From assembly GCA_949293255.1 (NCBI GenBank), contig CASFCL010000003.1:10042-74041 (forward strand): 64,000 nucleotides of DNA. The letters are read 5' to 3'. The translations under genes were made by a program, and so were the position numbers. This DNA is from an uncultured bacterium (lineage in GTDB: Bacteria > Bacillota_I > Bacilli_A > RFN20 > CAG-826). A model generated the notes under the pieces. It saw only the letters and a program-made list of their open reading frames with translations. It was not told where the DNA came from and made no database searches. Of the stretch, positions 2,164-20,001 are shown piece after piece. How positions within the stretch are numbered: the stretch's first letter is position 1; every line of letters begins with the position of its first letter.

Positions 2164-4679
2164 TGAAAAAGAATAAAACTTTAGTAATCTTATTATTAAT
2201 TCCGTTTGTTATTGGTTTATTAACATTTGTTAGTGTTGTCGCTTTAACAAATAATTTTGCTTCATATATTGAATATATCATCTTTAATTATCAAGAAAAT
2301 GAAGGCTTTAGAACTAATAATGAATATCTTTTAGAAGCTGAAGGTCATCAAGCAAGAGAAGATTTAGAACTTGCTCCAGGAAATAATCTTGTTTGGGAGA
2401 TTGTAAGCTATGGAGAAAATAGTGAAGGATGTGCCGTAATTGAAGAAAAAGAAGAAGGTGAATTTTATTTAGTTACCAGCGATAAAGAAGGTGACTGTTT
2501 AGTTAGATGTAGAACAGAAAATAAACAAGTTAAAAGAGATTTTAGAGCTCATATTTATGATAACGCTTTAATTTTAATTAATCCTGTTGCTATAAGTAGT
2601 GGCTCGCAAATTGATGAAACTAGATATTATGGAGAATATGATGTTGATAGTAATAACACCTGTTCAAAAACTCCTGCCGAGGTAGCTTTAAATGTTAGTG
2701 TATTTGGAGAAGGAGAAGGTGGAGAGATTAGAGTAGGAAGTAACACTACAAGCAATGTTTCATTTAATTCATCAAGTAGTGTAATGACTTTTAATGGTTC
2801 AGGAAATGCAACTTTAGAGCTAGAAACTTACGTTAATTCTGTTAATATTTCAGCAACCTATTCATTTAATATCGTCTCGCAAGGTTATAACGTTTACGAT
2901 TATTTAGATTTACTTGCTTGTACAAATAGATCATCAAGTGGAGAGATTGTTTGTTTACAAACAAACCTTCAATCACTTGCAAATACTTATAGGGTAAATA
3001 GAGATGAGCAAGGAAAAGATACATATATTGAAGAACATATTAATAACAACACTAAATTATTTGGCATTTTTGATTTTGCTTCTCAATCATACGATTTTAG
3101 CGATTTAATTTATTATCAAGATCCAAAATTAGAAACTAAATTTATCGATCAATTCTTAGCTAGTGATAAAGTTGTTGCTGGATTTAATTATTCAACTCAA
3201 ATGAAAGTAGGAATTAGAGCTCAAAAAGATATTTATGGAAATGGATTTACCATTAATATGAATGATCTAGCTTATCCAAATCATGGTTATATTGATGCAA
3301 CAACTGGAAAAATGACTCCAGATAGAACTTTAGATTATTTCTTTGGACCATTAACATTTGTTTCAATTGGTGATATTGAAACAATGTCAGTTATTAGAGC
3401 ATATTTATGTGATAATGTTGGATTACTTTTAGATGGTGATAATATCATTTTAAATGATATAAAGGTAAGAAACGCAAATAACGTTGATAATATGTATAAT
3501 CTTACCTTTACAGGAACAGTCGTAGAAGTTCAAGGAGATAATGTTACAGTTAAAAATTCAATTATTGAAAATGGTAGAACATGTTTAAGAGCATTTAGTA
3601 CTGATAACTTATTAATTGATAATTGTTTACTTCAAAATGCTGCTGAATTTATCGTAAAGTTAGGTTCTAATCGAGTAAATTCAACAAATCATAATAAAGA
3701 AGTTACTGTTAGATATGGTTCAAATACCATCACAACTGATTTTGAAGATTTCTATAATTTAAGTGAAGATAGTACCAAAGTTAATGCTGATAATGTTTTA
3801 ACTGATTTATTCTGGGGAGCTCAAAATGGAGGCAACACTTATACTTCAACAGAAGTAATTAATGCCTTAAATGATATTCAAGAAGGATTAGATAATTATG
3901 ATGGTATTATAAACTCTGATGGTAGTGTCAATTATGATGCTCATATCACAATAAATGATTCATTATTTTATAATAGTGGAATTTATTCAATTGCTTTAGA
4001 ATCAGCATTTAATGGAGCTTATTTATATAATGGAATGCCAGGGTTAGTATCAATGCTAGCTGAAATATTTGGAATTTTACCAAATGATGTTGGAGGAACA
4101 TCTTTCCCAGTAGAGCTTAAAATTACAGGAGATACAAGATTCTATGATTATCAAAATATTGATTCTTTAGATATTACCGCTTTAATTGAAGAAAATTTCT
4201 CAACCTTTATTGGTCAAGTTGGAGGTGGTAGTAGCGGTGGTAGCTTAGATGATATTTTAGGAGATTTTTCAGGTATTAATATTGATTCTTTTTTCCCACT
4301 AAAAGCGATTATTAAAGATTACGCTATTCAAAATGGCCTGGCTTATAGAGTAAGTGAAGAAGATGGAACGACTTCATATTATGTTAATAGACCAATTGCA
4401 TGGTATGGAGGAGGCTATAATGCCAGCACAGTCCATTTTGAAACTACAAATGATTATTCTTATTCTGATGAAGTAATTGCTGATTTAACTAATGATATTA
4501 TTAATGGAATTCATGTTCCAGCAACTGGTGAATTACTTTCATATTCAACACTTGCTAAATGTGTCATTATGGCAATTGGTACTCATCCATTTAAGTTTAT
4601 TATGAATGGTAGATTAAGTGGAAGTGGTGAGCCAGAATATTTTAATGAGGTTCCAAATATTAGTTATTTAACTAATTAA
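2163..4679 (+). CDS. Membrane-anchored extracellular protein, probable Ig-like plus beta-helix regions
   Basis: N-terminal TM; DIYGNGFTI and NVTVKNSII-type beta-helix strands. Confidence 0.55.
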   Translation: MKKNKTLVILLLIPFVIGLLTFVSVVALTNNFASYIEYIIFNYQENEGFRTNNEYLLEAEGHQAREDLELAPGNNLVWEIVSYGENSEGCAVIEEKEEGEFYLVTSDKEGDCLVRCRTENKQVKRDFRAHIYDNALILINPVAISSGSQIDETRYYGEYDVDSNNTCSKTPAEVALNVSVFGEGEGGEIRVGSNTTSNVSFNSSSSVMTFNGSGNATLELETYVNSVNISATYSFNIVSQGYNVYDYLDLLACTNRSSSGEIVCLQTNLQSLANTYRVNRDEQGKDTYIEEHINNNTKLFGIFDFASQSYDFSDLIYYQDPKLETKFIDQFLASDKVVAGFNYSTQMKVGIRAQKDIYGNGFTINMNDLAYPNHGYIDATTGKMTPDRTLDYFFGPLTFVSIGDIETMSVIRAYLCDNVGLLLDGDNIILNDIKVRNANNVDNMYNLTFTGTVVEVQGDNVTVKNSIIENGRTCLRAFSTDNLLIDNCLLQNAAEFIVKLGSNRVNSTNHNKEVTVRYGSNTITTDFEDFYNLSEDSTKVNADNVLTDLFWGAQNGGNTYTSTEVINALNDIQEGLDNYDGIINSDGSVNYDAHITINDSLFYNSGIYSIALESAFNGAYLYNGMPGLVSMLAEIFGILPNDVGGTSFPVELKITGDTRFYDYQNIDSLDITALIEENFSTFIGQVGGGSSGGSLDDILGDFSGINIDSFFPLKAIIKDYAIQNGLAYRVSEEDGTTSYYVNRPIAWYGGGYNASTVHFETTNDYSYSDEVIADLTNDIINGIHVPATGELLSYSTLAKCVIMAIGTHPFKFIMNGRLSGSGEPEYFNEVPNISYLTN

Positions 4680-4699: not shown

Positions 4700-5860
4700 A
4701 TGAAAAAAGGTATGTTTAAAAGATTAGGTAAATGTTTATTATTAAGTAGTGCTTTAGTTTTTGGAAGCGTGTCACTAGCATCTTGTGATATGTTTTTTGG
4801 AAGCGATGGGACTGCAGTTTTAAATTATGAAGTAACTGTTGATGAAACAACTGGAGATACAACAGTTGTTGTTAGTTTTGTTGATGATTCAATGGAAGAT
4901 CTTACTTTTACAATCCCTGCTGATGCTTTAGATGGAGTTGGAATTGAAAGTATTATTCCTACATATAACGCCGAGGATTCTTCAATAATCTTAACAATTA
5001 CCTATACCGATTCTTCCTATCAAGATACCGTCATTACCGTTCCTGTTTTAAAAGGTGAAGATGGAGAAAATGGCGTTAGTGTCACTGGAGTAGAAGTTGG
5101 AAGTGATGAAAATGGAAATACCACAATTCAATTTACATATAGTGATGAAACAACAAGTGAATTAATTACCATTCCTAAAGGTATCGATGGAGTTGATGGA
5201 GTTGGAATTGCTGATATTGATGCTTTTACTTATCCAGAAGGAATGACTGAAGTTACAATTACTTATACCAATGAAGAAACAGAAACATTTTTCCTTCCAG
5301 GAGTAACTTCAATTGCTGATATTAGTTATGATCAAAGTTCATCAACTGAAACTGAATATGGATTAATTATTAATTTTACAGATGGAACAAGTACGTCAAT
5401 TACTCTTCCTAGACCTCAAGCAACTGAGTGGTTTTATGGAGCTCTTCCACCCTCAGATACTTTAGGAAGTGATGGAGATTTCTATTTAAATATTTCTAAT
5501 GGTGAAGTTTATACAAAAGCAAATGGAGTATGGGCAGCTATATTTTCTATTCAAGGTAGTGGAAGTAGTGCAAGCGTAAATAGATATTATGTTTCATTTG
5601 TTTTAAATGATGGTAGTGAAAGCTTTGTTGATCCAAATCCAGATGATAATATTACTTTTAGTGGAACTTCAATCTCTCAAAGAGTTGATGAAGGATATGT
5701 ATTTACTTTAGATGAAATACCTTTAGTAAGTAAAGAAGGATATACATTTGAAGGATGGTATACCACAGCTGATAATAATCCTAACGCTGGAAAATTAAGC
5801 GATATTACCCCTGTATTTTCAAATCTTACTTTATATCCTCGTTGGAGCCAAAACGCATAA
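4700..5860 (+). CDS. Lipoprotein with short collagen-like linkers and C-terminal InlB B-repeat-like domain
   Basis: Lipobox LASC; KGEDGENG and KGIDGVDG; KEGYTFEGWY...LYPRW. Confidence 0.7.
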   Translation: MKKGMFKRLGKCLLLSSALVFGSVSLASCDMFFGSDGTAVLNYEVTVDETTGDTTVVVSFVDDSMEDLTFTIPADALDGVGIESIIPTYNAEDSSIILTITYTDSSYQDTVITVPVLKGEDGENGVSVTGVEVGSDENGNTTIQFTYSDETTSELITIPKGIDGVDGVGIADIDAFTYPEGMTEVTITYTNEETETFFLPGVTSIADISYDQSSSTETEYGLIINFTDGTSTSITLPRPQATEWFYGALPPSDTLGSDGDFYLNISNGEVYTKANGVWAAIFSIQGSGSSASVNRYYVSFVLNDGSESFVDPNPDDNITFSGTSISQRVDEGYVFTLDEIPLVSKEGYTFEGWYTTADNNPNAGKLSDITPVFSNLTLYPRWSQNA

Positions 5861-6084: not shown

Positions 6085-7247
6085 CTCAACTATCAAGAAA
6101 CAGGAAATATAGAACTAAAAAGAAATTTAAATAAAGATTTTGTAAAGAAAGTTGTTGCTTTTTTAAATACTCATGATGGAACTATTTATATTGGCGTGGA
6201 TAATGATGGAGATATTATAGGCGTTGAAAATGTAGATATGTTAATGAGGCAAGTTTGTGACATTATTAGAGATCAAATCCTTCCTTCAACGGAAGCCTTG
6301 TGTGAAATTTCCTCTTTATTACAAGAAGATAAAACAATAATCTTGGTTAGAGTAAATAAAGGTAATAAGCTTTTTTATATAAAAAAGAAGGAAGAAGTGC
6401 AACAGGGTTTTTCATAGAGATGGAACATCGTCAGTCCCAATGAGTGAAGAAGAAATAGAAAGAAGATTTATATCCTCATTAACCTATAAAAGAACTCAAT
6501 TAAGTGAAATTTCTATTGCTAAAAATAATTTAGATTTCAGTATTTTAAAAGGAAAACTACACTCAAATAATATTCATATTAATGACGATACCTTTTTAAA
6601 CAATTTTTCTTTAATAACTAAAGATGAAAGATTCAACTTATTGGCAGAATTATTAGCAGATGAAAATAGGGTTTCATTAGCTATTTATGTATTTAAAGGT
6701 AAAGATAAAACAGATTATGTTATGAGAAATGAATATGGAAATAAATCACTAATACAGGCATATAAAGATGCTTTAAATTATTGTGAAGCTATAAATCCAA
6801 CATTTGTTGATGTCAACACAAGACCTCGCCAAGAAAAGAGAATGTTTGATAATAAAGCTTTTGAAGAAGCATGGATTAATGCATGTGTCCATAATTTATC
6901 GATACGCATATTTCACCGCAGATTTATATATCTGAGGATAGAATATAAATTGAGTCTCAAGGAGGGATACCATATGGATTAACTGAAAAAGATTTTTGTC
7001 TGGTATTTCTAAACCTGAAAATCCAGATTTAATGGATGTATTTAAGTCGTGTGGGATTACTGAGCACTCGGGTCACGGTGTTCCTGAAGTTGTAAAAGTA
7101 TATGGCGAAAAAGCATATAAATTTTCTACTAATACAATAACTGTAACCATACCATTTGATTTACAAAAATTTTATAAAAATGGCATAATGAATGGCATCA
7201 TAAATGATTATGTAAGTTCTTATTTTAAGGGTTATGAAATTAGTTAG
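6085..7247 (+). pseudogene. Fragmented AlbA_2/HATPase_c_4 (RecG C-terminal-like) ATP-binding regulator
   Basis: ETGNIELKR...VVAFLNTHDGTIYIGVDNDG, EAWINACVHN, GITEHSGHGV split across ORFs 6196-6417, 6440-6982 and 6996-7247; no start codon after the RBS. Confidence 0.8.
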
Positions 7248-7531
7248 ATTATTAAAATTGAGAAAGAGAAATTGGAGATTTAGAAGTGTTAGATTGTGGA
7301 TTTATTGGATTAATAAAACCATTTTGAATATATGTATTTACACAAAGTACAAATTGAATCTAAATAATTGACAACATTAAATTTAAAAGGCTTGATTGTA
7401 CTCTAATTTAATAATCTTAAAACCTAATAGATTAGATGAAGTTATAAATGATAACAATGAAGTCTAAAAAGATATTCTAACGACCATTGATGACTATAAT
7501 AGAAATTGCAAAACAAATATATTTAATTCTA

Positions 7532-7573
7532 TATCGGCAAAAAAAATATTAACATTATTTATTTTTGCCGATA
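7532..7573. promoter_or_regulatory. Inverted repeat, likely operator of the HTH-Fic gene
   Basis: tatcggcaaaaa...tttttgccgata directly upstream of the gene. Confidence 0.5.
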
Positions 7574-7590
7574 AATGATAATATATTTAT

Positions 7591-8484
7591 ATAAAATATT
7601 TATCATCAAAAGAAATAGCAAAATTATGGAATGTTTCAGAAAGATCGATTAGGAATTATTGTCTTAATAATCAAATTAATGATGCTTATAAAAAAGGGAG
7701 AAAATGGTATATTCCTATAGATGCAGTTAAACCATTAAGAATAAATAGTTCTTTAGAAAATAAGAATCCTTTATTAAAAAGATTATTAGAAGAAAAAAGG
7801 ATTAATTAAAAAGGTGGAATATATCATAAAACACAAATTCTTTTTGCTTATAATTCTAATCATATAGAAGGTAGTACATTAACAATTGAAGAAACACAAT
7901 ATATATTTGATGAAAATAAAATCATAAAAAGTGGAGCGATATATATTGATGATATTATTGAAACTGTTAATCATTTTAAATGTTTTGATTATATATTAGA
8001 TAATGCTAATAAAGATTTAACAGAATCATTTATTAAAAAACTTCATTCAATATTAAAAGAAAATACAAGTGATTCAAGATTAAGCTATTTTAAGGTAGGA
8101 GAATATAAAACTCTAGCTAATGAAGTTAATGGAATTGTTACTAGTGATCCAAAAGAAGTTAAAAAGGATATAACAAAATTTTTAAAAGAATATAAAGAAA
8201 AAGAAAATATAGGATTAAAAGATATTATTGATTTCCATTATAAATTTGAAAAGATTCATCCATTTCAAGATGGTAACGGTAGAGTAGGAAGACTCATCAT
8301 GTTTAAAGAATGTTTAAAAAATAATTTAACGCCATTTATTATTGATGATGAATTAAAGATTCCTTATTTAAGTGGAATAAAAAATTATAATGAAGAAAAA
8401 GAATTTTTAAGAGGAACCATAGAAGAAGCAGTAGATAAATATAAAAAGATTATTGATTATTTTGGGGTGAAAACAAATAATTAA
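7591..8484 (+). pseudogene. HTH-Fic family protein pseudogene
   Basis: KYLSSKEIAKLWNVSERSIRNYC (HTH), YNSNHIEGS, Fic motif HPFQDGNGRVGR; ATA at the expected start and in-frame TAA at 7807-7809. Confidence 0.85.
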
Positions 8485-8620
8485 AATCTTTGTTTGTTAG
8501 GTAAAACTTGTTTTATTGATTTAGGAATAATGTGAAATTATATTGAAAATGATTAATTAATAAATAAGTCAATTTATTATTAAATATATAGATAAAAATA
8601 TATAACGATAGTGGTGGTTT

Positions 8621-8646
8621 TTTAAGTATACATTTATGTACAAATC
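8621..8646 (+). promoter_or_regulatory. Putative recombination site 1 (hix-like 12-2-12)
   Basis: tttaaGTATACA-TT-TATGTACaaatc; homologous to 14259-14284 (-) and 15367-15392 (+). Confidence 0.55.
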
Positions 8647-8899
8647 TTGATTTTAAAAGGATATCCACTGCAAAAATGTATCAAAAAATAAAAATTCAAA
8701 ATATTGTTATTCTTGAAAATTTAGATGTATTTTTAGATTCTAATATTTGTTTTGAATGTTTAAATAATGTACTTCCATTGCTTCTTTCTTTAATATCTAT
8801 TTTTTGTGTTGGATATGCTGGATGGACATTATCAGGAACAGGAGTTTCTACTAGTGTTAATGCAAGTGTTGGGGATGTAATTGACACATCAAATTATAT
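8626..8899 (+). repeat. Left copy of long inverted repeat (partner 13978-14279)
   Basis: 8680-8770 is the exact reverse complement of 14150-14240 (91 bp); homology continues through the codons for SIFCVGYAGWTLSG..VSTSVNASVGDVIDTSNYI. Confidence 0.95.
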
Positions 8900-9422
8900 A
8901 TATTTTGATTCTACATACGGAAGCAATAACTCAGGTATTGATCCATTTTCATACGTTCAAGATAGTGCTGTAAATGGCTTTGTAGATGAAAACGGAATGG
9001 TCAATTCTAGTGCTGTGTTAAAATTTTATTTAATATTTGATTTTGGTAACTATTATTTTTATGATACATCTTTTAAAGACAATGGAGCTTTTAATTTTTA
9101 TTTATCATTGAGCTCAAATTCGTATTTGTCCTCAACATACTTAGATTCAGCCATTTTAAACTTAAATAATTCACAATATGCTAGTGGAAATTATGTAGGT
9201 TCTGCTCCTAGATTCAGTTTTAACGGCATAACAAATACAACTAATTTCTCTATTTTTAATTGCAATTTACAAGTAAGCAATATTCCTTCAAATTTTTCAC
9301 AATCTTATACCTTACGTTATAGATTAACATTTTCTCTTGTTTTTAATTTTAAATCTTCTATGGTTGAAGAAGTAATTTCAAATATTTCTAATTTTTCTCT
9401 TGCTTTGGGGGTTTATTTCTAA
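8676..9422 (+). CDS. Cassette 1 small exported subunit; native RBS/start deleted, possibly silent
   Basis: Paralog of 13503-14129 and 15411-16061 (VGYAGW...VGDVID). Confidence 0.65.
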   Translation: MYQKIKIQNIVILENLDVFLDSNICFECLNNVLPLLLSLISIFCVGYAGWTLSGTGVSTSVNASVGDVIDTSNYIYFDSTYGSNNSGIDPFSYVQDSAVNGFVDENGMVNSSAVLKFYLIFDFGNYYFYDTSFKDNGAFNFYLSLSSNSYLSSTYLDSAILNLNNSQYASGNYVGSAPRFSFNGITNTTNFSIFNCNLQVSNIPSNFSQSYTLRYRLTFSLVFNFKSSMVEEVISNISNFSLALGVYF

Positions 9423-11584
9423 TGAGAGTTAAAAAATACCGTTTAAGGAAATTGCTAGCTGTTGAATTATTTGCTTTTTCCTGCTCGCTTGCTTATAGCG
9501 ATTGGAGGATTCCTTCTAATAATTCTCAAATGCCTACACCATTAAAGCAAGATTCAGTTTGCTATGTTAAACGAAATGGTTCTATACTTGGTTATTTTGT
9601 ATCTCTTTCGGGAGCAATGAAATATTGCTATCAAAATAATGAGAATGATTCGATATATGTTATTCCGGGAGGAACAAATGCTTGTAATACAATTACGATA
9701 GAAAACGAAACTTTAAATATAGAAGCTGGAGACTCTTTAATTTTACCTCACACAGGTGAATATTGGGGAGATACTCAAAGCTCAAATGATCAAAATAATT
9801 CAAACGCATCAGTTTCTTTTGGAAATTCTACTTATAAGAAAATACAACTTAATTTAGTAAATACAACTATTAACGTTAACGGATTATTAGGTGTCGGTGG
9901 ATTATGGGGAGGACTAAGCTCAAAAAAACATGGTTTTACTGGCGGAAATTATTCTGAAATTATAATGGATAGCTCATCAAAATTAAATATATATGGAAAC
10001 ATGAGGGTTTATGGTTATATTGGAAAAAGTACAAATTTTACTTCTACAATCTCGATAAATGTTTATTCAGGCGGAAGTGTGTCAGAACCTCTAGTTGTTT
10101 ATGACTTTGAAGGTGGAACTAATACAGTAACAGGTTTAATGGGAAAAGCATTCTTTTTTAATTGCTATGACATGCCATCAATTGAAGTTCCGATGTTATT
10201 AAATTATGGATCAACTTTAGTTGGAAAAGCAGCAATATACATGAGTGATGCTCATAGGTATACTGATGGTACAATCTTTTCAACATCAAGCGCAGCTTTT
10301 TTAACCGCTAACTCTTCTGATGCGTCACTTTTATGGGACTATAATAGAAACTCAACTTCATATGCTCATACAAATTACTTAAATCATAAAACAACATTAA
10401 CAACATACGGAAATATTACATTTAATAAATTGGTGGTAAGTATCTTTTTCCTTATTAACTATACCGTGGATTCATCTGACTATTTTTTACCGGTGAGTTC
10501 AATGTACTCTTTTATAGTAAATGGAACTTTAAATATTAATAATAAAATACAATTTTTACCAGGAGCTTCTGTCAAGATTAATGAAACAGGTTTTGTATAT
10601 ATAAACGCAAATGTGGTTGCTCATGAAAACAACAATTTAACAATTGCAGAGCACAATGTTTCCTCTACTAGAGCAGAAATCATTAATAATGGAACGATTG
10701 TACTAAATTCTGGCTTTCAAGGATATATACAACCTGAAAACAGCGATTATACCTCTATGGTAGTAACTGGAGGAAATTATTCTTCAAGTGTTTCTACATG
10801 TAATGTTAAAACTGGGGGAAAGGAATATGAAGCGGTATCATTTTCTTCAATAATTAAAGAAGAAACATCAGACACTAACTTACAAACCAATTCTTATTAT
10901 ACTTCCAATGCTTCTTTAACAAATTCATTTTATCGTCTTTATGGAGGTCAAACAGCTTCTATAACATTCAATACTATTGAAGAAACAGGAGATTTTTATT
11001 ATTCTCCAGTATTTTATGTTGATGTGTCTTTTTCTTCATCTGAACTTACTTTTTCGTATGTAGTTACTTCTCCTACAACATTATACTTACCTATAGGTTC
11101 ATCTTATAGCATTTATAAAGATGATGATGATATCACTGTGAATAGAATTATTTTAGGCTCAACCCAACTCGACCTCCTTAATCCTACATCTCAAACTCTT
11201 TCAAATACAATAACAGCTGATGTATATCCAACATTTGAAAGAGAATCAACACCTATTAAAAGCATTACTTTGTATTCAAATGACGTACCATCTGGAAATT
11301 TAAGTTCTGATGGAGGCCAACTATTTTCAATTTTTATAACTACAGATCCTTCCGATTTAAGTAATTCAAAATATAATAATTTTAGTTGGACTGTATCAAA
11401 TGCTACAACTCCCGCAGTCGCAGATTTTACTAGCGAAGCAATACCTATTGTTGTTGAAAAGAATTCGACGCCGTTCATCAGCACCTCCAGGAATGTTAAA
11501 ATCAAATTATCTGTTTTCGACTTTAAGAGCGGAAACATCATTTCTTCCAATGAGTTTAGCAAACGTCAAGATGGGTGGCGGTAG
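9422..11584 (+). CDS. Cassette 1 large exported Ser/Thr/Asn-rich protein (putative adhesin)
   Basis: Signal-like N-terminus ending AYSDW; shared blocks VCY, IYVIP, YDFEGG, LNYGS. Confidence 0.7.
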   Translation: MRVKKYRLRKLLAVELFAFSCSLAYSDWRIPSNNSQMPTPLKQDSVCYVKRNGSILGYFVSLSGAMKYCYQNNENDSIYVIPGGTNACNTITIENETLNIEAGDSLILPHTGEYWGDTQSSNDQNNSNASVSFGNSTYKKIQLNLVNTTINVNGLLGVGGLWGGLSSKKHGFTGGNYSEIIMDSSSKLNIYGNMRVYGYIGKSTNFTSTISINVYSGGSVSEPLVVYDFEGGTNTVTGLMGKAFFFNCYDMPSIEVPMLLNYGSTLVGKAAIYMSDAHRYTDGTIFSTSSAAFLTANSSDASLLWDYNRNSTSYAHTNYLNHKTTLTTYGNITFNKLVVSIFFLINYTVDSSDYFLPVSSMYSFIVNGTLNINNKIQFLPGASVKINETGFVYINANVVAHENNNLTIAEHNVSSTRAEIINNGTIVLNSGFQGYIQPENSDYTSMVVTGGNYSSSVSTCNVKTGGKEYEAVSFSSIIKEETSDTNLQTNSYYTSNASLTNSFYRLYGGQTASITFNTIEETGDFYYSPVFYVDVSFSSSELTFSYVVTSPTTLYLPIGSSYSIYKDDDDITVNRIILGSTQLDLLNPTSQTLSNTITADVYPTFERESTPIKSITLYSNDVPSGNLSSDGGQLFSIFITTDPSDLSNSKYNNFSWTVSNATTPAVADFTSEAIPIVVEKNSTPFISTSRNVKIKLSVFDFKSGNIISSNEFSKRQDGWR

Positions 11585-11639
11585 TTTTACACTTGTGACA
11601 GGTTTTTAGATATAAATTTGAACATAATTTCAGCTTTAT

Positions 11640-11673
11640 AAATGCGATATTCATCGGAAAAATCGCATTTTTT
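11640..11673 (+). terminator. Terminator between convergent cassettes 1 and 2
   Basis: aaatgcgat/atcgcattt stem with T-tract. Confidence 0.6.
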
Positions 11674-11821
11674 CATTTTTGCAAATTTGGTCTCACATCA
11701 TTTGTTATTAAACAGATTGATTATCTTTGTATTGATGATAAAAGCTATATAAAAAGTGAATAAAAAGTATAAGTTTAATTATTACTATTAAATTAGTAAA
11801 TGTAATATTTTAAAAGAGTAA

Positions 11822-13513
11822 TTAATTTGTCCAATAGGCATTAGAATCAGCGTCTAGTACACTTGTATATGTAGAACTCCCATTAAAGTTAGTTAGATTT
11901 GTTGCACTGGAAATATAACCCTGGGCATTGTATGTGACATTATTAGGAGTAACATCTGGCAACGTTCCAAGAAAACCGGTCTTTAATTTAGATAATATAG
12001 GCATAGAAACGCTAGCTTTTGTAATAAAATTTATTATAGAATTTGCTTTCTCTGTTTTAATAAAACCACCTAAACCATGACTAGAATTATTTGATGAATA
12101 TATGATTCCATTATTTATTAAAACTCCATCTGACATATCTGAAGGATAATATGTATAGTTTGACCACGAATCAAAAATAGTTTCTCTTTGCTGAAAATAA
12201 GAAGGAAAATCACTGCTCTTAATTATACCAGTGTTCCAGTTAAAGTATACCTGTGCACCTTCATCAATATTAATTGAACTCCCAGGCATAATTTTCAGTT
12301 GGACATGAAAGTTATATGTTCCTTCGAATAGATTTAGTCTTAATCTATGAGATAGCGGAAACATTTTTCCACTGGTTGTTATATCATATGCTGCAACTGT
12401 TAATGAAATATCGTTAACAGTCACTCCCCCATAACAATTAACATTTGTATAAGAATTTATATAATGTTCAGCTGAGTAATTATTACTATGCACTGTATGT
12501 GCAAAATAAGAAGAATTAAATTTATAATCTATATAGCCTCCATCAAGAATTTTAATAATTCCAGCCGAAGCTGTTTTTGTTCCATCATTAGAAGCCTCAT
12601 AACCAATTAGGGTAACTTCAGTATTATACATTAAATCCCCGGTTGTAACATATACGCTGGAATAGGCATTTAATAAGGAGCCATAATTTAATATTACATT
12701 TGTATGAGAATTAGGAAAATCAAATAGGTTAATCGGGAAGAAAGTTGAATCTTTTAAAGCATTAGTGATTGTTCCACCGGCGTAATCATAAAAAACTATA
12801 GGTTGATATAGAATACAATTATCGTTAACAATTAGTTTAGAATTATTATTATCTGAAACTGGTTTAATATAACCCCTTAGATCCAAAGTAGGTGTACCTG
12901 TAACATTTCTTTCCAGTACTATAGAAGCTGATGTACCTAATTGGACTTCAGCATATGATGATGTAGTAGCACCAGCTAATCTACCCCCTCTATGGCCTAT
13001 AATCCCTCCGATATTCATTCTTCCATTAATTGTTAGCTTTTGGCCACTTTCAATTCTTAAAATTATTTTTCTATTTGTTGCAATTAAAGCATCAGTTTGG
13101 TCAGCAAAATTATAATTGGAAGGATACCCGGATGATGTATCTAAGGTTTGAGCATAAGTCTCTCCTTCATAAGGTAAAGTCAAAATGTCTGTACTTTCAA
13201 GTGTGTGTGACTCTTTCATAGTAACGAGAGTGTGAGTGTTACTAGAAGAGTCGTCATTATTAAGACTTGGGATTACATACAAAGTATCGTCAATTCCATT
13301 TCCGTAAATATTTTTTAAAGCAGAATCAATATTCGTATAATATGTCGTGCCTTTAGAATTTGTTGAATAACAAACAGCTATTCCAGAATCTGCAGTTGTC
13401 GTCTTAGTAGTAGATGAGAGAACCCAATCAGATACTCCAACAACACATAATAAAATTGGAATAATTAAAAGGAGGAATCTAAACGTTTTGGACGATACTA
13501 ATTTATTGAACAT
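11822..13513 (-). CDS. Cassette 2 large exported protein (putative adhesin)
   Basis: N-terminus ending GVSDW; VCY, LYVIP, YDYAGG, LNYGS shared with 9422-11584. Confidence 0.7.
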   Translation of the reverse strand: MFNKLVSSKTFRFLLLIIPILLCVVGVSDWVLSSTTKTTTADSGIAVCYSTNSKGTTYYTNIDSALKNIYGNGIDDTLYVIPSLNNDDSSSNTHTLVTMKESHTLESTDILTLPYEGETYAQTLDTSSGYPSNYNFADQTDALIATNRKIILRIESGQKLTINGRMNIGGIIGHRGGRLAGATTSSYAEVQLGTSASIVLERNVTGTPTLDLRGYIKPVSDNNNSKLIVNDNCILYQPIVFYDYAGGTITNALKDSTFFPINLFDFPNSHTNVILNYGSLLNAYSSVYVTTGDLMYNTEVTLIGYEASNDGTKTASAGIIKILDGGYIDYKFNSSYFAHTVHSNNYSAEHYINSYTNVNCYGGVTVNDISLTVAAYDITTSGKMFPLSHRLRLNLFEGTYNFHVQLKIMPGSSINIDEGAQVYFNWNTGIIKSSDFPSYFQQRETIFDSWSNYTYYPSDMSDGVLINNGIIYSSNNSSHGLGGFIKTEKANSIINFITKASVSMPILSKLKTGFLGTLPDVTPNNVTYNAQGYISSATNLTNFNGSSTYTSVLDADSNAYWTN

Positions 13514-14129
13514 TTATGTATGCTCCTATATTCAATGATATTCCATTTGTTACATTAATTGATGAATAAATAGATGTATAATCACTAACTTCAAATGTAA
13601 CTAAAATTCCAAAATAGATGGTTTCTATCGATCCGTTTGTATTTAAAATTGAGGCGATATTTAATGTACTGTTTGAAACTGATGGAGTTAAAAATAAGCT
13701 TGTATTACTAGCTCCAAGAATTCCATAGGAAGCTTGAGTTGCAGCAATTTTTGAATTTGTTATTAAATCATAAGACCCTGAATTTTTAATTTCTACTTTA
13801 AAAACAAGTTGATTATTTGTTATAAGTTTAGCGTTATTACATGTATTAAGATTGATTTGATAATGAATTGTTAAAGAAGCCGTATTACCAATTATTCCTT
13901 CGTTAGCAAAACCCTTATCTGTATATACAATATTTGAAATGCCTGAATTGTTGTCCCCTCTAACTGAATTATAAGAAATATAATTCGAAGTATCGATTAC
14001 ATCTCCAACACTCGCATTAACACTAGTAGAAACTCTTGTTCCAGAAAGTGTCCATCCAGCATATCCAACACAAAAAATAGATGTTAAAGAAAGAAACAAT
14101 GGAAGTAGTAATTTAGCTTTCTTAACCAT
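13503..14129 (-). CDS. Cassette 2 small exported subunit, intact RBS and start
   Basis: GGGAG-aaaaca-ATG; MVKKAKLLLPLFLSLTSIFCVGYAGW. Confidence 0.75.
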   Translation of the reverse strand: MVKKAKLLLPLFLSLTSIFCVGYAGWTLSGTRVSTSVNASVGDVIDTSNYISYNSVRGDNNSGISNIVYTDKGFANEGIIGNTASLTIHYQINLNTCNNAKLITNNQLVFKVEIKNSGSYDLITNSKIAATQASYGILGASNTSLFLTPSVSNSTLNIASILNTNGSIETIYFGILVTFEVSDYTSIYSSINVTNGISLNIGAYINVQ

Positions 14130-14279
14130 TGTTTTCTCCCGATAAATTGACATTATTTAAACATTCAAAACAAATATTAGAATCTAAAAATACATCTAAA
14201 TTTTCAAGAATAACAATATTTTGAATTTTTATTTTTTGATTATCCTTTTTAAAATCAAGATTAGTACATAAATGTATAC
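13978..14279 (-). repeat. Right copy of long inverted repeat
   Basis: Reverse complement of 8626-8899, plus 43 bp (14107-14149) carrying the RBS and start codon. Confidence 0.95.
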
Positions 14280-14284
14280 ATTTA
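14259..14284 (-). promoter_or_regulatory. Putative recombination site 2
   Basis: Minus strand taaatGTATACA-TT-TATGTACtaatc; overlaps the perfect 22-bp palindrome 14266-14287. Confidence 0.55.
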
Positions 14285-14294
14285 TGTCGTATTA

Positions 14295-14323
14295 ATAATA
14301 CCACCATTAATATTTTTTGTAAA
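14295..14323 (-). promoter_or_regulatory. Sigma70/SigA-type promoter facing cassette 2
   Basis: TTTACA-17bp-TATTAT with extended TG. Confidence 0.6.
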
Positions 14324-14359
14324 TACCAAATAAAATAGTCAATTTATTCAAGAAAACAA

Positions 14360-14959
14360 TTATTTTTTTGTTTCAATTGATCTTAAAAAATTATAGAAAG
14401 CAGTTCTTGATATACCTAGTCTAGTAGTAGCTTCTTTAACAGTAATTTCTTTATTTTTATATAGCGATGCAACTTCATAATATTCATCAGTAATCACTAA
14501 AGATGGTCTACCAAATTTAACACCTTTTTCTTTAGCGATCTTAATTCCTTCAGCTTGTCTTTGTCTAATGGTATCTCTTTCATTTTCAGCAATAAAAGAT
14601 AGAAGTTGGAGAACAAGATCTGAGACAAATCTTCCCCATAAATTCGAAGGTTTATCTCTTGTATCTAGTATTGGCATATCTATTACAAATATATCAGCTT
14701 TGATATCTTGAGTGATTACTTTCCGTTGTTCTCCAATTTCTCTATAGTTTCTTCCTAACCTATCAATTGATTTGATAACTAGAAGATCTTTTTCTTTTAA
14801 TTTTCTTATTAATCTACGATACGATTTTCTATTAAAATCTTTCCCTGATTGTTTATCGATAAATATGTTTTTATCTTCAATTCCAAGTTTATACATTTCT
14901 TCAACTTGTCTGTCGGTTTTTTGAGTAACTGACGATACTCTTACATATCCATAATTCAT
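14360..14959 (-). CDS. Serine recombinase (resolvase/invertase family) with C-terminal HTH
   Basis: YGYVRVSS..Q..RQ, DKQSGK..NR, SIDRLGR, ER..I.QRQAEGI..AK..GVKFGRP; AAGGAG RBS fits ATG at 14959. Confidence 0.93.
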   Translation of the reverse strand: MNYGYVRVSSVTQKTDRQVEEMYKLGIEDKNIFIDKQSGKDFNRKSYRRLIRKLKEKDLLVIKSIDRLGRNYREIGEQRKVITQDIKADIFVIDMPILDTRDKPSNLWGRFVSDLVLQLLSFIAENERDTIRQRQAEGIKIAKEKGVKFGRPSLVITDEYYEVASLYKNKEITVKEATTRLGISRTAFYNFLRSIETKK

Positions 14960-15366
14960 ATAAAACATTCTCCTTATGAATATATTTTAAAGTAGCAGTT
15001 ATTTATCGTGATTTTATTAGGATGGTTGCGTTTAAAGTAATAAATTTAAATAACTTAAAAGCTTATTTATAAAAAACATATGTTTTCCTACATATTTTAA
15101 TGTTACGCTAAACTTTTGTGTGACAATTGCTATTAATTCTTAGTTTTTACAATGAATTTTAACCATGCATATTTGTGATAAGAATAGTTATGATTTTAGG
15201 CCTCTAGGTCCTGACTTCATAATGACTGTCAGTAGGGAAATCGCCGATTTAATAAATCGTTTTTTATATCAAAAATTTTAAAAGTTAATTAGATATAAAA
15301 TGTTAATATTTAAGTCAATTTATTATTTTTAAATTGAATTAAATCTATAGTATTTTACCATGTTTA

Positions 15367-15392
15367 TTTTTGTATACATTTATATACGAAAG
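15367..15392 (+). promoter_or_regulatory. Putative recombination site 3
   Basis: tttttGTATACA-TT-TATATACgaaag; 9 of 12 arm positions palindromic. Confidence 0.55.
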
Positions 15393-15410
15393 TTAATTAT
15401 TTTCTTACAT

Positions 15411-16061
15411 ATGAATCTAAAACCCATTAAAAATTCACTAAAAATAGTAAATAAAAAAAGCAGCGGAATCTTACTTTTGCTCTCAATTTTTAGCCTTTTT
15501 AGTGTAGGATTTTCATCATGGATTTTAGTCAACGAAAATGAAAATTCAATGTCAGTTAATGTTGATGGAACAGTAGGTGATGTTATTGATCTTACAGGAT
15601 TAGTAACATTAGATACTTCTAATGTAACAATCACTGATTATGGTTATTCAGGGTTTATAAAAAATGGAATATATTCAACATTAGGATATGTTGCTTTACC
15701 AGTTACTATTAATCCAAAAGAAGGTGAAAATTATACACTTTATCCTTCTTTATCTTATACTTGGGATGAAATAACGGAATCAACAGCAGTTGCTTTTAGG
15801 GAGAATTTTTACAGATGTTCATTTGATACAACTTTAGATTATGGAACATCAGTTTTATATGGTACTTTTTCATCAAGTTTAAGTACAAAATATTCTGCAG
15901 CATATTCTTTTGATTATTCATCTAATAGTTCATCATTAGGAACAAATTTTTATATTATTTTTGAACTTGGTCCATTTAGTGAGTCTTTATATGAAAGATT
16001 ATCAGATTCTTCTTTAAGGTTTTCTTTTTCGTTAAATATAGGAGTTGATACAAATGCTTAG
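15411..16061 (+). CDS. Cassette 3 small exported subunit
   Basis: LLSIFSLFSVGFSSWIL...TVGDVIDL; start uncertain. Confidence 0.7.
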   Translation: MNLKPIKNSLKIVNKKSSGILLLLSIFSLFSVGFSSWILVNENENSMSVNVDGTVGDVIDLTGLVTLDTSNVTITDYGYSGFIKNGIYSTLGYVALPVTINPKEGENYTLYPSLSYTWDEITESTAVAFRENFYRCSFDTTLDYGTSVLYGTFSSSLSTKYSAAYSFDYSSNSSSLGTNFYIIFELGPFSESLYERLSDSSLRFSFSLNIGVDTNA

Positions 16062-19000
16062 TATGAAAAATAAAAAGAGAGTTTATAGAAGATCGATATT
16101 TTATTATCTATTTTTCTTTATGCTCTTTTTTGTTACACCTATTGCAATATGTTCATGGATATTATCTGATGTAGTTATTTATGAAAATATTAAGGCTGAT
16201 TTTAAACCTAGTGGTTTAACTGATTATATTAATGGTCTTAGTAGTGGAACAAGTAATTACATTTACGATAATAGTGTGAATTATAATGATGATAATTATC
16301 GAAATGAAAATGCTTCATATTTAGCAACGGCTCAGAGTGCATCTGATACATACGTTTCGAATTATGTTTTAGCTGCTGAAGATGAATCGTCCTATAGAGG
16401 CTACGATATAGATAGCGACTTTACATATATTGGTGGTAAAACAAAAACGATTGAATTAGGAAATCCATTTTCTACAACAACAATTAATAAAAATGTTCAT
16501 TTTACTCATACAAATAGTGAAATTAATTATTCATGGAGCAGTATAAGTTCTTTTTCTGTAAACGATAACGCAGAAGATGAAGCTGGAACATCTAGTAATT
16601 TAAGTTCTAATAGTTTTTTCCAATATAGAGTCTACAATAGTTCTCAATCACGTATGGAGTATCGATACTCTAATAGATTTAATAAAAACGTAAATTTTTA
16701 TTGGGGAATTAATGCAAATTATGATGGAACATCCCATACAAAGCACGGTACAGTAACTGCTATCCATTACTATGGCGACCAAGGTGCCTCTAGGATTACT
16801 GTAACTTCCGCTGTACCTTATGGAAGACTTTATACAGTTAAACTTGTCGGAGATTTACTAATTACTGATAATTCAACCTTATCAATTGGTGCATTAATTG
16901 GAGCAATTTCAACTACATTTTCAGGTGGCGTCATTAATGGGGATTTTGTGTGTTTAGATTTGAATGGCCATACAATTACTATTGACAGTGGTTCAACTTT
17001 AAATGCTTGGGGATATGTAATTGATTCTTCATTAGATGAAAATGGTAATCATTTAGGGCAAATTGTTAATAATGGAACAATTTATACAAGTTTTGTTGTT
17101 GAAGATTATGGTGGAGGTGGTAATACTGTTGGTAGAGGATTCACTAATACAATGCCTTTTTCACTATATTCCTTACCTTATTTAGCTTGCAAAGTAAAGA
17201 CGAATTATGGTGGTAGCATTATTTGTGGAACAATGCTTTATGCTAGTGATACACAAAATAGAACCTTATTAAATTGGATAGGGAATACAAGTAGTTATTT
17301 TATTCAAATGACTACATCTGGAGATTACATTACTATTGATACATATAATAATTGTTCATCGAACATGAACACACATGTTAAAGGATCATCAACACTGCAA
17401 CCATTCCATTCTAATTATTATCTAAACGGTACAATCAATATTAATAGTTTAACGCTTAATTTAAGTGTTTCTGTTATTAGTGCTACTATCAATATGTCTC
17501 AATATCCATTTCAAATTCCTCCATATGCTCGAATTACAATTTCTTCATCTAGCACTATAACTTTACCTATTCATCTAGAGTTGAATCCTGGTTCAACTCT
17601 AGTAGCTTATGAAGGAAGCAAGATAAACTTTACTTCTGTTACTTATCAGACTTCCGCAACTGCCCTGGGAAGTACTAAAGTAATTGCTAGTGGGACATCT
17701 TATGGTGGAATAAGTGTGCCAACTCAGATGCCACCTACTGGGAATACTTCTTTTGCAATTACTGGTGCATCAGGTCAAAGTAACGGCTTATATGGATATA
17801 CATCATCCTATTATACAGATTATGAATCAGCTGAAAAAAATTTGATATTACAAAATAATCCAAGAGTTAAAATTAATAGCACTTTAAACTTTAGCGGTAA
17901 CGGTCATATATTAAGTGGATTAATGTCTTTAGGTGCAGAAACTCTAAATTCAATTACGAATGCAGTAAATCAAGGAAAATTAACTACTTTTTATAGAAAT
18001 GCACAAACATTCGAGAATTTTGGAACAAATACTAGCGATGCTATTTCTTTTGTTAACACAGGTGCTAATCCCGGAAATATTTCTTATGGAGGTTATACTA
18101 TTCAGCCTCTTGCAACTTCAAGCAGTCAAGTTTCTATTAATTATACTGACGCTACAATTGATGATAGCGGAAATAGCGATAGTGAAGCTTTAGTTTTATA
18201 TAAAGTTGTTTCTCCAAGTTCATTTAATGCTAACTTTGATGCTAATACTTATTATGATTTTAGAAATGGTTTTTATTATAATTCAAAAACAAGTAAATAT
18301 TATATTTATAAATTAGTTAGCGGAAGCGGAACGCCTGTAACATCAATAGGAAGGATTCAAACACTTGGTAATTTTGTTGAAGTAGAATCAATAAATAAAG
18401 ACCATAGTGTAACATATAATAGTGCCAAATATTTGTTTTTCGAGGATACTTTTGTTTCCACAAATATATCAAGTCCTTCTACTTCTGGTAATGGTTTATA
18501 TCTTTATGATAATTCAACAAAAGCTTATAATTTGATTAGTAACTTATCAGCAAATTACACATTTGAGGCTAGTGTTCGTAGAAGAAGATATAGAGGTGCA
18601 ACTTCTGTTACAAGTAGTTCAGCTAATACTACTTATGCTGCAAGTGGAACTGCCAGTAAATCCTATATTGCTTGGATTCCAGGAAGTATTACTTATCCTA
18701 CTTCATGGACGAATTTACCTAATTTTGAAGAAGATGCTTATGATGATGTTAGATATACAGGAGAACAAGTTGATCAGGGCACTGTGCCAACAAAAGGTAT
18801 AGTTTATGTTTCTAATGTATCACTTAATTCTTTTACTGTTTCAAATGTAAATACTTCTAGTCAAAGAGTAGATTTAACAGTTATTTCTCAAAGTGCGACA
18901 TATAGTTCTACCTATAATTTAATAGGTACATGCGATATCAGTTATAGCAATGAATCCGGATATACATATTCATATTCCGATCCTTGGCAGACTGATAGCG

Positions 19001-19215
19001 CTTCAAGTGGTTTTCCTGATAGTAGTTGGAAAGCTCCAACAATTGGTACAGGAACAGTTAGTAGAACTCGGTATTTAGATCACTATTATTTTTATAGATA
19101 TTCATATTTTGTTTCAGGCAATTATAACGAGACTGGTGCTAATTTGTATACAAATGTATTAAGTTCTGGGAGCAATATTAAATACACCTCTTCAACAGGC
19201 TTATGGACAAAATAA
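16054..19215 (+). CDS. Cassette 3 large exported protein (putative adhesin)
   Basis: GGAG RBS; N-terminus ending AICSW; LSIGALIG, LNAWGYV, VEDYGGG, TNYGG match paralog blocks. Confidence 0.7.
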   Translation: MLSMKNKKRVYRRSIFYYLFFFMLFFVTPIAICSWILSDVVIYENIKADFKPSGLTDYINGLSSGTSNYIYDNSVNYNDDNYRNENASYLATAQSASDTYVSNYVLAAEDESSYRGYDIDSDFTYIGGKTKTIELGNPFSTTTINKNVHFTHTNSEINYSWSSISSFSVNDNAEDEAGTSSNLSSNSFFQYRVYNSSQSRMEYRYSNRFNKNVNFYWGINANYDGTSHTKHGTVTAIHYYGDQGASRITVTSAVPYGRLYTVKLVGDLLITDNSTLSIGALIGAISTTFSGGVINGDFVCLDLNGHTITIDSGSTLNAWGYVIDSSLDENGNHLGQIVNNGTIYTSFVVEDYGGGGNTVGRGFTNTMPFSLYSLPYLACKVKTNYGGSIICGTMLYASDTQNRTLLNWIGNTSSYFIQMTTSGDYITIDTYNNCSSNMNTHVKGSSTLQPFHSNYYLNGTININSLTLNLSVSVISATINMSQYPFQIPPYARITISSSSTITLPIHLELNPGSTLVAYEGSKINFTSVTYQTSATALGSTKVIASGTSYGGISVPTQMPPTGNTSFAITGASGQSNGLYGYTSSYYTDYESAEKNLILQNNPRVKINSTLNFSGNGHILSGLMSLGAETLNSITNAVNQGKLTTFYRNAQTFENFGTNTSDAISFVNTGANPGNISYGGYTIQPLATSSSQVSINYTDATIDDSGNSDSEALVLYKVVSPSSFNANFDANTYYDFRNGFYYNSKTSKYYIYKLVSGSGTPVTSIGRIQTLGNFVEVESINKDHSVTYNSAKYLFFEDTFVSTNISSPSTSGNGLYLYDNSTKAYNLISNLSANYTFEASVRRRRYRGATSVTSSSANTTYAASGTASKSYIAWIPGSITYPTSWTNLPNFEEDAYDDVRYTGEQVDQGTVPTKGIVYVSNVSLNSFTVSNVNTSSQRVDLTVISQSATYSSTYNLIGTCDISYSNESGYTYSYSDPWQTDSASSGFPDSSWKAPTIGTGTVSRTRYLDHYYFYRYSYFVSGNYNETGANLYTNVLSSGSNIKYTSSTGLWTK

Positions 19216-19227
19216 GGGTGACCTATT

Positions 19228-19878
19228 ATGACTATTGAAAATAATTCAAAGATATTAAATAGAACAATTTCATACTTTAATAAATTTGAAAATAATGTCT
19301 TTAAATACGAGTTAGTTATTCGAGAAAATAATTGTCTCAATAATTCTTATAATAAATCTATAATCAAAGTATATCCTGAAAAGATATCAAAAACTAAAGC
19401 ACTTTTGTATAAGAATAAAAACATATCTAGAAGTAAAAACTCTTCTATAATTCCTCTTCGACAAAGGGATAAGGTTTATTTATTTAATTTAGTTATTGAT
19501 GTCACTAAACTTAAAGAAGAATTATCTTTAGGTAAAATTGTTCTTTCAACAGCTTTATCACTCTTTATTGAAGCGTTAGCTGGAATAGGAACAACAGTGA
19601 TGGTTTCTTATTTATCCAATGCGGTGCTTAAATCAGTATCTTCATTAAAGCATAGTTATGCACTAGTGCTTTATTGGATTCATCTAAATGAACCTGTAAC
19701 AAAAACAGTTGCATGTAGAAAAATCTTAAATGATAAAAATATTAACTTTAAAGATAAAACCAAATCGACTATTGACAAAATCATTGATGATTTATTAGCA
19801 AAAACTTTAATATGTAAAATAGAAAATAAGTATATTTCTAATGTTCGAGTATTTAAGATATGTAGTAGACTATTATAA
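19228..19878 (+). CDS. Hypothetical protein
   Basis: 216-aa ORF with RBS-like AAGGG; no recognised motif. Confidence 0.5.
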   Translation: MTIENNSKILNRTISYFNKFENNVFKYELVIRENNCLNNSYNKSIIKVYPEKISKTKALLYKNKNISRSKNSSIIPLRQRDKVYLFNLVIDVTKLKEELSLGKIVLSTALSLFIEALAGIGTTVMVSYLSNAVLKSVSSLKHSYALVLYWIHLNEPVTKTVACRKILNDKNINFKDKTKSTIDKIIDDLLAKTLICKIENKYISNVRVFKICSRLL

Positions 19879-20001
19879 ATAAAATTTTATTAAAGTATCG
19901 ATTAAAAAAATTATTAAGAATAAATAGTTTATACATTATCAAATATCATTTTCCCTGCAAAACTCAACTTTTTTTATAAATTTTTATTTTTTTCATTTTC
20001 T

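Follow-up and report, generated by a model that had tools for sequence, protein, structure and literature searches.

A serine recombinase gene lies among three copies of one site and three gene cassettes

We analysed a 64,000-nucleotide (nt) stretch of DNA, hereafter the window, from an uncultured bacterium (GTDB lineage Bacteria; Bacillota_I; Bacilli_A; RFN20; CAG-826; NCBI GenBank assembly GCA_949293255.1, contig CASFCL010000003.1, positions 10,042 to 74,041 of the forward strand), in which three copies of a short sequence, each directly upstream of a two-gene cassette, surround a gene for a small serine recombinase. A first-pass annotation, made by a model from the letters of the window, had taken these copies for hix-like recombination sites with an asymmetric TT core. 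We consider it likely that the three sequences are indeed the crossover sites of the recombinase, which is encoded between the second and the third of them, and that a mobile segment carrying a promoter and the recombinase gene switches between the cassettes. The sites, genes and segments of the locus are listed here by their positions in the window, with lengths in nt, base pairs (bp) or amino acids (aa) and open reading frames abbreviated as ORFs.

Flank A, up to site 1
Site 1, 8616-8641, core 8628-8629: GGTTTTTTAAGT-AT-ACATTTATGTAC; outer arm, on the flank A side, degenerate, cassette-side arm good
Segment B, 8629-14276, no strand: cassettes 1 and 2 in tail-to-tail order; recombination of site 1 with site 2 would invert it
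Cassette 1, 8676-11584, plus strand: small membrane-anchored ORF at 8676-9422 (as assembled) and large ORF at 9422-11584 (720 aa)
Cassette 2, 11822-14153, minus strand: large ORF at 11822-13513 (563 aa) and small ORF at 13503-14153, probable start at 14129 after GGGAGAA
Site 2, 14264-14289, core 14276-14277: GTACATAAATGT-AT-ACATTTATGTCG; contains the 22-bp palindrome 14266-14287; both arms good
Invertible segment C, 14277-15374, no strand: 1,098 bp from core to core; recombinase gene, predicted outward promoter at the left end and two copies of a 20-bp element, D1
Small serine recombinase gene, 14360-14968, minus strand: longest ORF 202 aa, probable start at the second ATG at 14959, after GGAG, giving 199 aa; 70 nt from site 2 and 393 nt from site 3
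Site 3, 15362-15387, core 15374-15375: GTTTATTTTTGT-AT-ACATTTATATAC; recombinase-side arm degenerate, cassette-side arm good
Cassette 3, 15411-19215, plus strand: small ORF at 15411-16061 and large ORF at 16045-19215 (1056 aa)

Judged by its sequence, the recombinase belongs to the small serine recombinases, combining a catalytic domain (Pfam Resolvase PF00239, E-value 2.7e-25, residues 6-150) with a weak C-terminal helix-turn-helix match (HTH_7, 20.1 bits, below the cut-off of 23.8 bits). Among proteins of solved structure (phmmer), it came closest to Sin/Bin3 (1.1e-26), followed by gamma-delta (9.2e-18), Tn3 (1.3e-16) and Gin (7.1e-12), and its motifs GYVRVSS and SIDRLGRNY align with Sin; the C-terminal 63 residues had no meaningful match among solved structures. 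Assignment to the Mpi-type master invertases of Bacteroides was rejected (NCBIfam NF009949, 50.2 bits where the cut-off is 272). A tblastn search of the genome with the proteins of the locus turned up no additional copy of a cassette or of the recombinase.

The shared sequence is confined to the recombinase locus

Direct reading confirmed the three 26-mers of the first-pass annotation at 8621-8646 (plus strand), 14259-14284 (minus strand) and 15367-15392 (plus strand). The 16-mer GTATACATTTATRTAC has three exact matches in the window, together with a near-copy with two mismatches that arises at site 2 from the perfect 22-bp palindrome at 14266-14287; both the palindrome and the near-copy were present as described. 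Shuffled versions of the window contained on average 0.17 matches, and 0 of 100 shuffles reached four. A search of the whole genome (1,254,100 bases in 41 contigs, 94% complete), which had been proposed as a check, again returned three exact copies only; exact copies are thus confined to this locus, where all three surround the one small serine recombinase gene. The remaining inexact matches in the genome, one with a single mismatch and four with two, lie elsewhere and have no flanks in common with the sites. Scanning the A+T-rich genome with a half-site matrix of the recombinase family (see below) gave more than 100 weak matches and was set aside as unspecific, a match on contig C34 looking like chance, and Rfam had no match at E-values up to 1 for positions 8300-15600.

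Sites 1 and 2 extend into about 285 bp of inverted homology that covers the leaders and N-terminal coding parts (33 nt at 97%, 91 nt at 100% and 142 nt at 89% identity). Site 3 resembles site 1 over about 38 nt (76%) and site 2 over 28 nt (82%), with no likeness beyond, and is therefore conserved without its surroundings, as had been argued from the window alone.

Both orientations of the recombinase segment occur in the sampled population

Recombination at the locus was explored in X1, a public metagenome run that holds 98% of the sampled words and is possibly the source of the genome, hence not independent of its assembly. Among the X1 contigs (k = 31), one spans exactly 14268-15383, without differences and at a depth of 40.1 against 38-40 for its neighbours, another starts at 15371, and a 77-nt contig begins 1 base before the 16-mer of leader 2. 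The reference alone yields a k = 31 graph that is unbroken over 14211-20000. Adding the reference with 14277-15374 inverted reproduced the pieces 14211-14280, 14268-15383 and 15371 onward exactly. Deletion of the segment together with its circle was rejected as the cause of these boundaries, as it would place a start at 14273 instead. Since only the model of an inversion between sites 2 and 3 matches the boundaries, both orientations of the recombinase segment are present in the sample. The proposal that the sites serve the adjacent recombinase thus holds at least for sites 2 and 3, which recombine in the sampled population.

Three further runs (X2-X4) contain related strains at 90-97% likeness, some of whose contigs stop at a site or close to one (8641, 8645); the joints there are short-sided and were not readable as inversions.

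The recombinase family shares one site form and is found in opposite states

Relatives of the recombinase were found in 11 of 60 other genomes at the level of the order (52-60% identical) and in 7 of 59 other genomes at the level of the genus (50-71% identical), and palindromes centred on GTWWAC adjoin these genes. Two wider collections were examined, a metagenome set comprising the best 80 (51-59% identical) of at least 576 relatives among at least 592 matched stretches, and a genome set of 80 species-representative loci drawn from at least 582 matched genome stretches; neither the two sets nor the members within either can be treated as independent. The search for the motif near homologous recombinases, also suggested by the first-pass annotation, was successful in that the form arm-GT-NN-AC-arm recurs beside relatives that are 51-72% identical.

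In the metagenome set, a pair of sites 83-168 bp apart was present at 42 loci, one site at 11 and none at 27, with too little flank at 6. The cores of the two sites were reverse-complementary in 42 of 42 pairs, reading GT/AC (in either order) in 30, AT/AT in 10, AG/CT in 1 and TT/AA in 1, so that 32 of the 42 pairs had asymmetric cores. The genome set gave a pair at 56 of 80 loci and complementary cores in 52 of these 56, the four exceptions having weak second sites. Core complementarity alone would follow from any inverted repeat. Yet the central pair differs from lineage to lineage, whereas GT and AC on either side of it are constant, and its two bases are the sole non-palindromic positions in otherwise symmetric sites; a variable central pair in an otherwise symmetric site is the signature of a serine-recombinase crossover site. 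Both sites lay downstream of the recombinase gene in 48 of the 56 genome-set pairs, upstream in 6 and on either side of the gene in 2, one of these being the congener G070 (see below) and the other, L152, having non-complementary cores and being probably mis-paired. A promoter can lie within such a short segment, as at L109, where the 139-bp stretch between the sites holds TTGACT-17-TATAAT.

Exchange at these sites was directly visible in three pairs of metagenome contigs (L054/L063, L100/L105 and L048/L050) from near-identical strains, which carry the same short inverton in both orientations. In all three pairs the outer arms and flanks are kept, with the inner arms and the intervening segment inverted, and the exchange can be located in these relatives between left-arm position 10 and right-arm position +7.

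At five loci of one subclade (L053, L055, L061, L065 and L075), the first site lies within a longer palindrome, with inverted TTGCAAA elements 12 bp outside each arm, and a half-site-like sequence 36 bp upstream overlaps the end of the recombinase gene. Homologous recombinases also occur in Acutalibacter intestini M00204, Lachnospiraceae bacterium NE2001 and bacterium 210917-SL.2.15 (L143, L163 and L184), which are presumably cultured.

The wider family places the centre of the site at AT

The description of the sites as hix-like stands in part: they do have 26 bp, with two 12-bp arms and a 2-bp centre, but the centre is AT, 5 bp from the TT of the first-pass annotation. With the register decided by the wider family, the dyad centre would be the AT of GTATAC (8628/9, 14276/7 and 15374/5), and the TT would correspond to arm positions +4/+5. 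In this register, the arms of sites 1, 2 and 3 of this genome (G000) pair at 5, 10 and 8 of 12 positions.

The unbiased test of the register was a search that makes no use of the motif. At the 80 metagenome loci, we collected from the 260 nt that follow the recombinase gene every 26-mer whose arms are complementary at 10 or more of 12 positions, and likewise, as a control, from DNA 1.5-3.5 kb further on. There were 34 such 26-mers in 19,763 positions next to the recombinase genes, 27 of which read GT-NN-AC at the centre, against 30 in 104,928 positions of control DNA, none of which did so (0/30). In 22 distinct sites of relatives, mean arm pairing was 10.6 of 12 at GT-NN-AC and 1.8-4.7 at other offsets from -8 to +8, including 3.5 of 12 at the offset of the TT reading (+5). 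The resulting family half-site is nTTYnAAAAwGT, and the whole site takes the form nTTYnAAAAwGT-NN-ACwTTTTnRAAn.

Scored with the family half-site matrix, which was built from sites preselected for GT..AC and palindromy so that its scores are partly circular, the outer and cassette-side arms reach -2.4 and 7.0 at site 1 and -3.4 and 7.3 at site 3, and site 2 has 7.0 on its cassette side and 3.6 on the side of the promoter. The palindrome at site 2, described earlier as creating an oppositely oriented near-copy, is no by-product but the one fully symmetric site. Moreover, AT is its own reverse complement in all three sites, and the idea that an asymmetric TT/AA core sets the direction of recombination therefore fails at this locus; the principle itself holds for most of the family, in relatives with asymmetric GT/AC, CT/AG or TT/AA cores.

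Congeners share the layout and a candidate outward promoter

Two genomes of the same genus have a comparable locus, with recombinases 71% (G070) and 59% (G076) identical to that of the window. Upstream synteny is preserved in both, where the ORFs at 547-2163, 2163-4679 and 4700-5860 have homologues, and in both an AT-core site and, beyond it, a cassette of one small and one large gene stand on either side of the recombinase gene. G000, G070, G076 and a fourth genome, G001, all have AT as the core; their recombinase genes are directed at the left cassette in G000 and G070 and the opposite way in G076 and G001. In four others (G065, G011, G062 and G064), a second site was looked for and not found, hence they have no comparable layout. 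The G001 homologue (L036, contig C28:58-645) contains a single TGA in frame, and the contig stops 57 nt beyond the gene; this could reflect a broken gene, a sequencing error or an assembly break about where the second site is expected.

Between the recombinase stop codon and site 2 lies a candidate for the promoter of the mobile segment:

Predicted outward promoter, 14295-14323, minus strand: TTTACA-17-TGgTATTAT, ending 5 nt before site 2

The candidate matches at 10 of 12 positions and is the sole promoter-like match in the region with a TG extension. Similar elements were read by eye in G070 (TTTTAA-17-TGcTAAAAT) and G076 (TTTATA-17-TGaTAAAAT), ending 5 and 7 nt before the sites. As assembled, cassette 2 abuts this promoter end of segment C. 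In G070 and G076 (L122 and L123), the cassette ATG, again read by eye, follows 0-12 nt after the site, which would leave no room for a promoter of the cassettes' own; the start codon of cassette 3 lies 23 nt past site 3.

Start codons in these two genomes and in the window (15388-15410) thus stand 0-23 nt past the site, with no recognisable Shine-Dalgarno sequence, and the site itself would form most of the 5' untranslated region.

Cassette proteins, leaders and flanking genes

The small cassette proteins have a common N-terminal hydrophobic segment, and the large ones are 23-27% identical to one another, cassettes 1 and 2 being paralogous. Neither Pfam nor NCBIfam held a family match for the cassette proteins, and in the Atlas they fell into unnamed clusters only, all under 0.9. 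For the 563-aa protein of cassette 2, four sequence homologues were found including its own cluster (three besides it). Its structural model, made from an 11-sequence alignment, has a mean predicted local distance difference test score (pLDDT) of 68.4 and a predicted template modelling score (pTM) of 0.75. Foldseek returned no match for the model at E-values up to 0.001. A wide structural search listed right-handed beta-helix proteins in all 50 rows, with pertactin (Z 11.3, root-mean-square deviation 6.9, 248 aligned residues), phage tailspikes (Z about 10) and TibA (Z 9.5) as top matches. The large proteins are thus probably membrane-anchored beta-helix proteins, adhesin-like or glycan-acting, a fold call of moderate confidence that extends from the one protein modelled.

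The window and X1 differ inside the inverted leaders (8741-8798 and 14172-14267). A shared X1 contig of double depth continues with eight letters that match cassette 2 at the point where cassette 1 of the window is missing about 40 nt, among them the ribosome-binding site and ATG. X1 also contains two 119-nt variants (14053-14171), each at about 40x depth, and both of its leaders seem to include about 15 nt that are absent from leader 2 of the window. These differences probably reflect collapse of the repeats during assembly, and the odd start of the cassette 1 ORF may accordingly be an artefact.

Several short ORFs precede site 1 between 6196 and 8484, the last of which encodes a HPFQDGNGRVGR motif at about 8258-8293, which we take to be typical of Fic domains; the gene looks fragmented. 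This stretch is absent in G070 and G076 between the homologue of 4700-5860 and the cassettes.

A proposed three-way switch

In the mechanism that we propose, each 12-bp arm is predicted to bind one subunit of a recombinase dimer, and the enzyme would be expected to make staggered cuts, 2 nt apart, in both strands at AT and then to swap half-sites. Recombination of site 2 with site 3 inverts the 1.1-kb segment with the recombinase gene and the outward promoter just past the 3' end of that gene, and this promoter, together with any read-through from the recombinase gene, would read over the site into whichever of cassettes 2 and 3 abuts it. An expression site would thus lie at the recombinase end of the segment, the abutting cassette being transcribed. 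Cassette 2 would be expressed as assembled, cassette 3 after inversion between sites 2 and 3, and cassette 1 after inversion between sites 1 and 2, giving a three-way switch. With good arms on the cassette side of every site and at the promoter end of the segment, and degenerate arms at the other two positions, a fully symmetric site would always form at the expression junction.

Because the AT core is symmetric, direction must come from the pairing of the sites, possibly helped by D1, a family of 20-bp direct repeats with the following copies:

D1 copy 1, 8559-8578, plus strand: AATAAATAAGTCAATTTATT; centre 60 bp from the site 1 core, on the non-cassette side; candidate accessory site
D1 copy 2, 14329-14348, plus strand: centre 62 bp from the site 2 core, inside segment C
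D1 copy 3, 15305-15324, plus strand: centre 60 bp from the site 3 core, inside segment C

These are the sole three copies with up to two mismatches in the genome, and they always stand on the non-cassette side. The arms of copy 1 (ATAAAT-N6-ATTTAT) are those of site 2, with a different centre; the same pattern occurs at 10 places in the genome, two of them here. To judge from this arrangement, D1 is possibly an accessory binding site, or else a leftover of duplication. A res-like composite, in which the AT site, D1 bound by a second recombinase dimer and a bent spacer between them set the direction, is conceivable, and we consider it unlikely. Were it true, a regulatory architecture like that of Sin would have been turned from resolution to inversion, and the composite site would permit the inversions between sites 1 and 2 and between sites 2 and 3 while blocking the deletion between sites 1 and 3 that would remove the recombinase gene. 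A gene for HU is present in the genome. No clear homologue of Fis was found there, HTH_8 matching only at or near its cut-off (22.5 bits in a frame of 500 aa and 20.1 bits in one of 57 aa), and none of 77 distinct family pairs had a fixed extra half-site upstream of the first, recombinase-proximal site.

Alternative explanations

Several observations weigh against the proposed switch or parts of it. Sites 1 and 3 have outer arms with negative scores. No recombinant junction of site 1 was seen in X1, where the contig is unbroken over 7000-8700; inversion between site 1 and site 2 or site 3 would break an X1 contig at 8641 or 8632, and there is no such break among contigs that, at k = 31, give no frequencies and drop rare variants. 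Within the genus, the AT and TT registers are only modestly apart (64 against 53 of 96 arm pairs in 8 sites), with a small advantage for the TT register at sites 1 (6 against 5) and 3 (9 against 8) of the window. Exchange centred on AT or on TT gives identical products at this locus, and the opposite states in relatives still allow exchange positions up to +6. This A+T-rich region shows no enrichment of promoter-like matches (41 found, 53 expected), and D1 is not conserved in G070, G076 and G001.

It might accordingly be asked whether the sites are centred on TT after all (8633-8634, 14271-14272 on the minus strand and 15379-15380), with an asymmetric core that sets direction as in hix. The site can be written as GTATACA-TT-TATRTAC, with 6, 6 and 9 of 12 arm positions pairing in the three sites of this genome, and TT falls within the exchange windows observed here and in relatives. 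Characterised serine recombinases, however, cut at the dyad centre of the dimer-bound site, and in the 22 strongly palindromic sites of relatives this register pairs at background level (3.5 of 12, against 10.6 at GT-NN-AC), dropping to 3 of 12 in site b of G076 and to 5 of 12 in G001; the TT itself lies within a T-tract that mirrors the conserved AAA of the opposite arm. We therefore hold a TT centre to be very improbable. Even less credible is a role of the 16-mer as a shared control element of transcription or translation, such as an operator or a 5' leader box, with no recombination site present. Its position directly upstream of each cassette, where it would belong to the 5' untranslated region, would suit such a role. 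Yet the same site form stands beside hundreds of homologous recombinases, before unrelated genes, the opposite-state contigs exchange exactly at the site, and the contig graph at this locus requires recombinant junctions within the 16-mer.

Two further explanations accept exchange at the locus and differ in its extent or present activity. Sites 2 and 3 might be the only ones in use, with site 1 a relic copied along with a duplicated cassette and any exchange between cassettes 1 and 2 due to homologous recombination or gene conversion across the leaders. This is possible, although we judge it doubtful. The inverted leader repeats, with identities of 89-100% over the three blocks given above, would allow it, the identity of sites 1 and 2 is part of a longer duplicated block, the X1 contigs show no branch at site 1, and G070 and G076 manage with two sites. 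On the other hand, site 1 is built like site 3, which recombines (degenerate outer arm, good cassette arm, GT-AT-AC), the homology of leaders 1 and 2 begins exactly at GTATAC, a D1 copy lies 60 bp from the site 1 core as at the other sites, and rare variants drop out of contigs. It is, by comparison, a long way from likely that the contig breaks at sites 2 and 3 come from a mixture of strains with fixed opposite arrangements, or from the assembler, rather than from active switching. X1 is a metagenome, related strains at 90-97% likeness occur in X2-X4, and the window assembly departs from the X1 contigs inside the repeats, all of which would speak for such an origin; but the segment contig has no letter that differs from the reference (0) and a depth equal to that of its neighbours, one precise exchange fits all boundaries, and a mixture would still mean that exchange had occurred at these sites. 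Recombinase-mediated inversion that moves the segment between cassettes thus remains the reading that we prefer.

Comparison with known systems

By architecture, the locus is closest to Hin/hix, the switch of flagellar phase in Salmonella (and likewise to Gin, Cin and Pin), with which it shares a small serine recombinase and 26-bp sites made of imperfect inverted arms around 2 central bp, as well as an invertible segment close to 1 kb in length (1,098 bp in this locus), with the recombinase gene and a promoter, here predicted, directed outward to alternative surface-structure genes. For Salmonella Hin, PMC2427008 reports hix sites of 26 bp, a promoter-bearing segment of 1 kb and a symmetric site, hixC, that works, inverting 16-fold more slowly than wild-type sites. 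The present system differs from Hin in its symmetric AT core, the hix core being asymmetric, in a recombinase with a better match, among solved structures, to Sin (1.1e-26) than to Gin (7.1e-12), in the lack of a clear Fis homologue among the genes found here, and in having three sites and three two-gene cassettes in place of an on/off switch.

Sin is the closest relative of solved structure, and resH likewise joins a crossover site to a second element at a fixed distance on one side, for which D1 would be the candidate here. PMC2764113 describes resH as 86 bp with site I, a spacer bent by HU and a regulatory site II, direction being set by the regulatory sites. Sin, however, resolves directly repeated sites, whereas the products here are inversions, and its regulatory residues F52 and R54 align with K and K in the present protein. 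The symmetric core raises the question of how inversion is told apart from deletion with neither a clear Fis homologue nor core asymmetry, and relatives that are presumably cultured carry homologous switches.

A third comparison is with Min of plasmid p15B, a multiple-inversion system in which one serine invertase acts on several crossover sites. Both systems have more than two sites for one invertase and hence more than two arrangements, with three sites here and junctions seen for sites 2 and 3 only; Min, however, shuffles the 3' parts of tail-fibre genes, whereas here whole two-gene cassettes would be brought to a mobile promoter.

The promoter invertons of gut Bacillota, to whose recombinase family the present enzyme belongs, share with it recombinases that are 51-72% identical, the same form of site and a promoter moved by inversion. 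Surveys of invertons have found many in Clostridia and few in Bacilli (PMC5903667) and have given new inverted-repeat motifs for those of Firmicutes_A (PMC11892184). No description of this site motif or type of locus was found in the main texts of the literature, supplementary motif lists lying outside that search. The site grammar (12-bp arm-GT-any 2 bp-AC-12-bp arm) proposed here for a large family of gut Bacillota serine recombinases, with at least 576 metagenome and at least 582 genome stretches matched, could allow the inversion switches of the family to be predicted from sequence alone. In those invertons a short segment (83-168 bp in the metagenome set) lies beside the recombinase gene, whereas here 1,098 bp enclose it; as read from the layouts compared, this genus has placed the recombinase gene inside the invertible segment, between alternative cassettes. 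An uncultured gut member of the Bacilli with a small genome would thus vary two-gene cassettes through a layout that is known from Hin and rare in this recombinase family.

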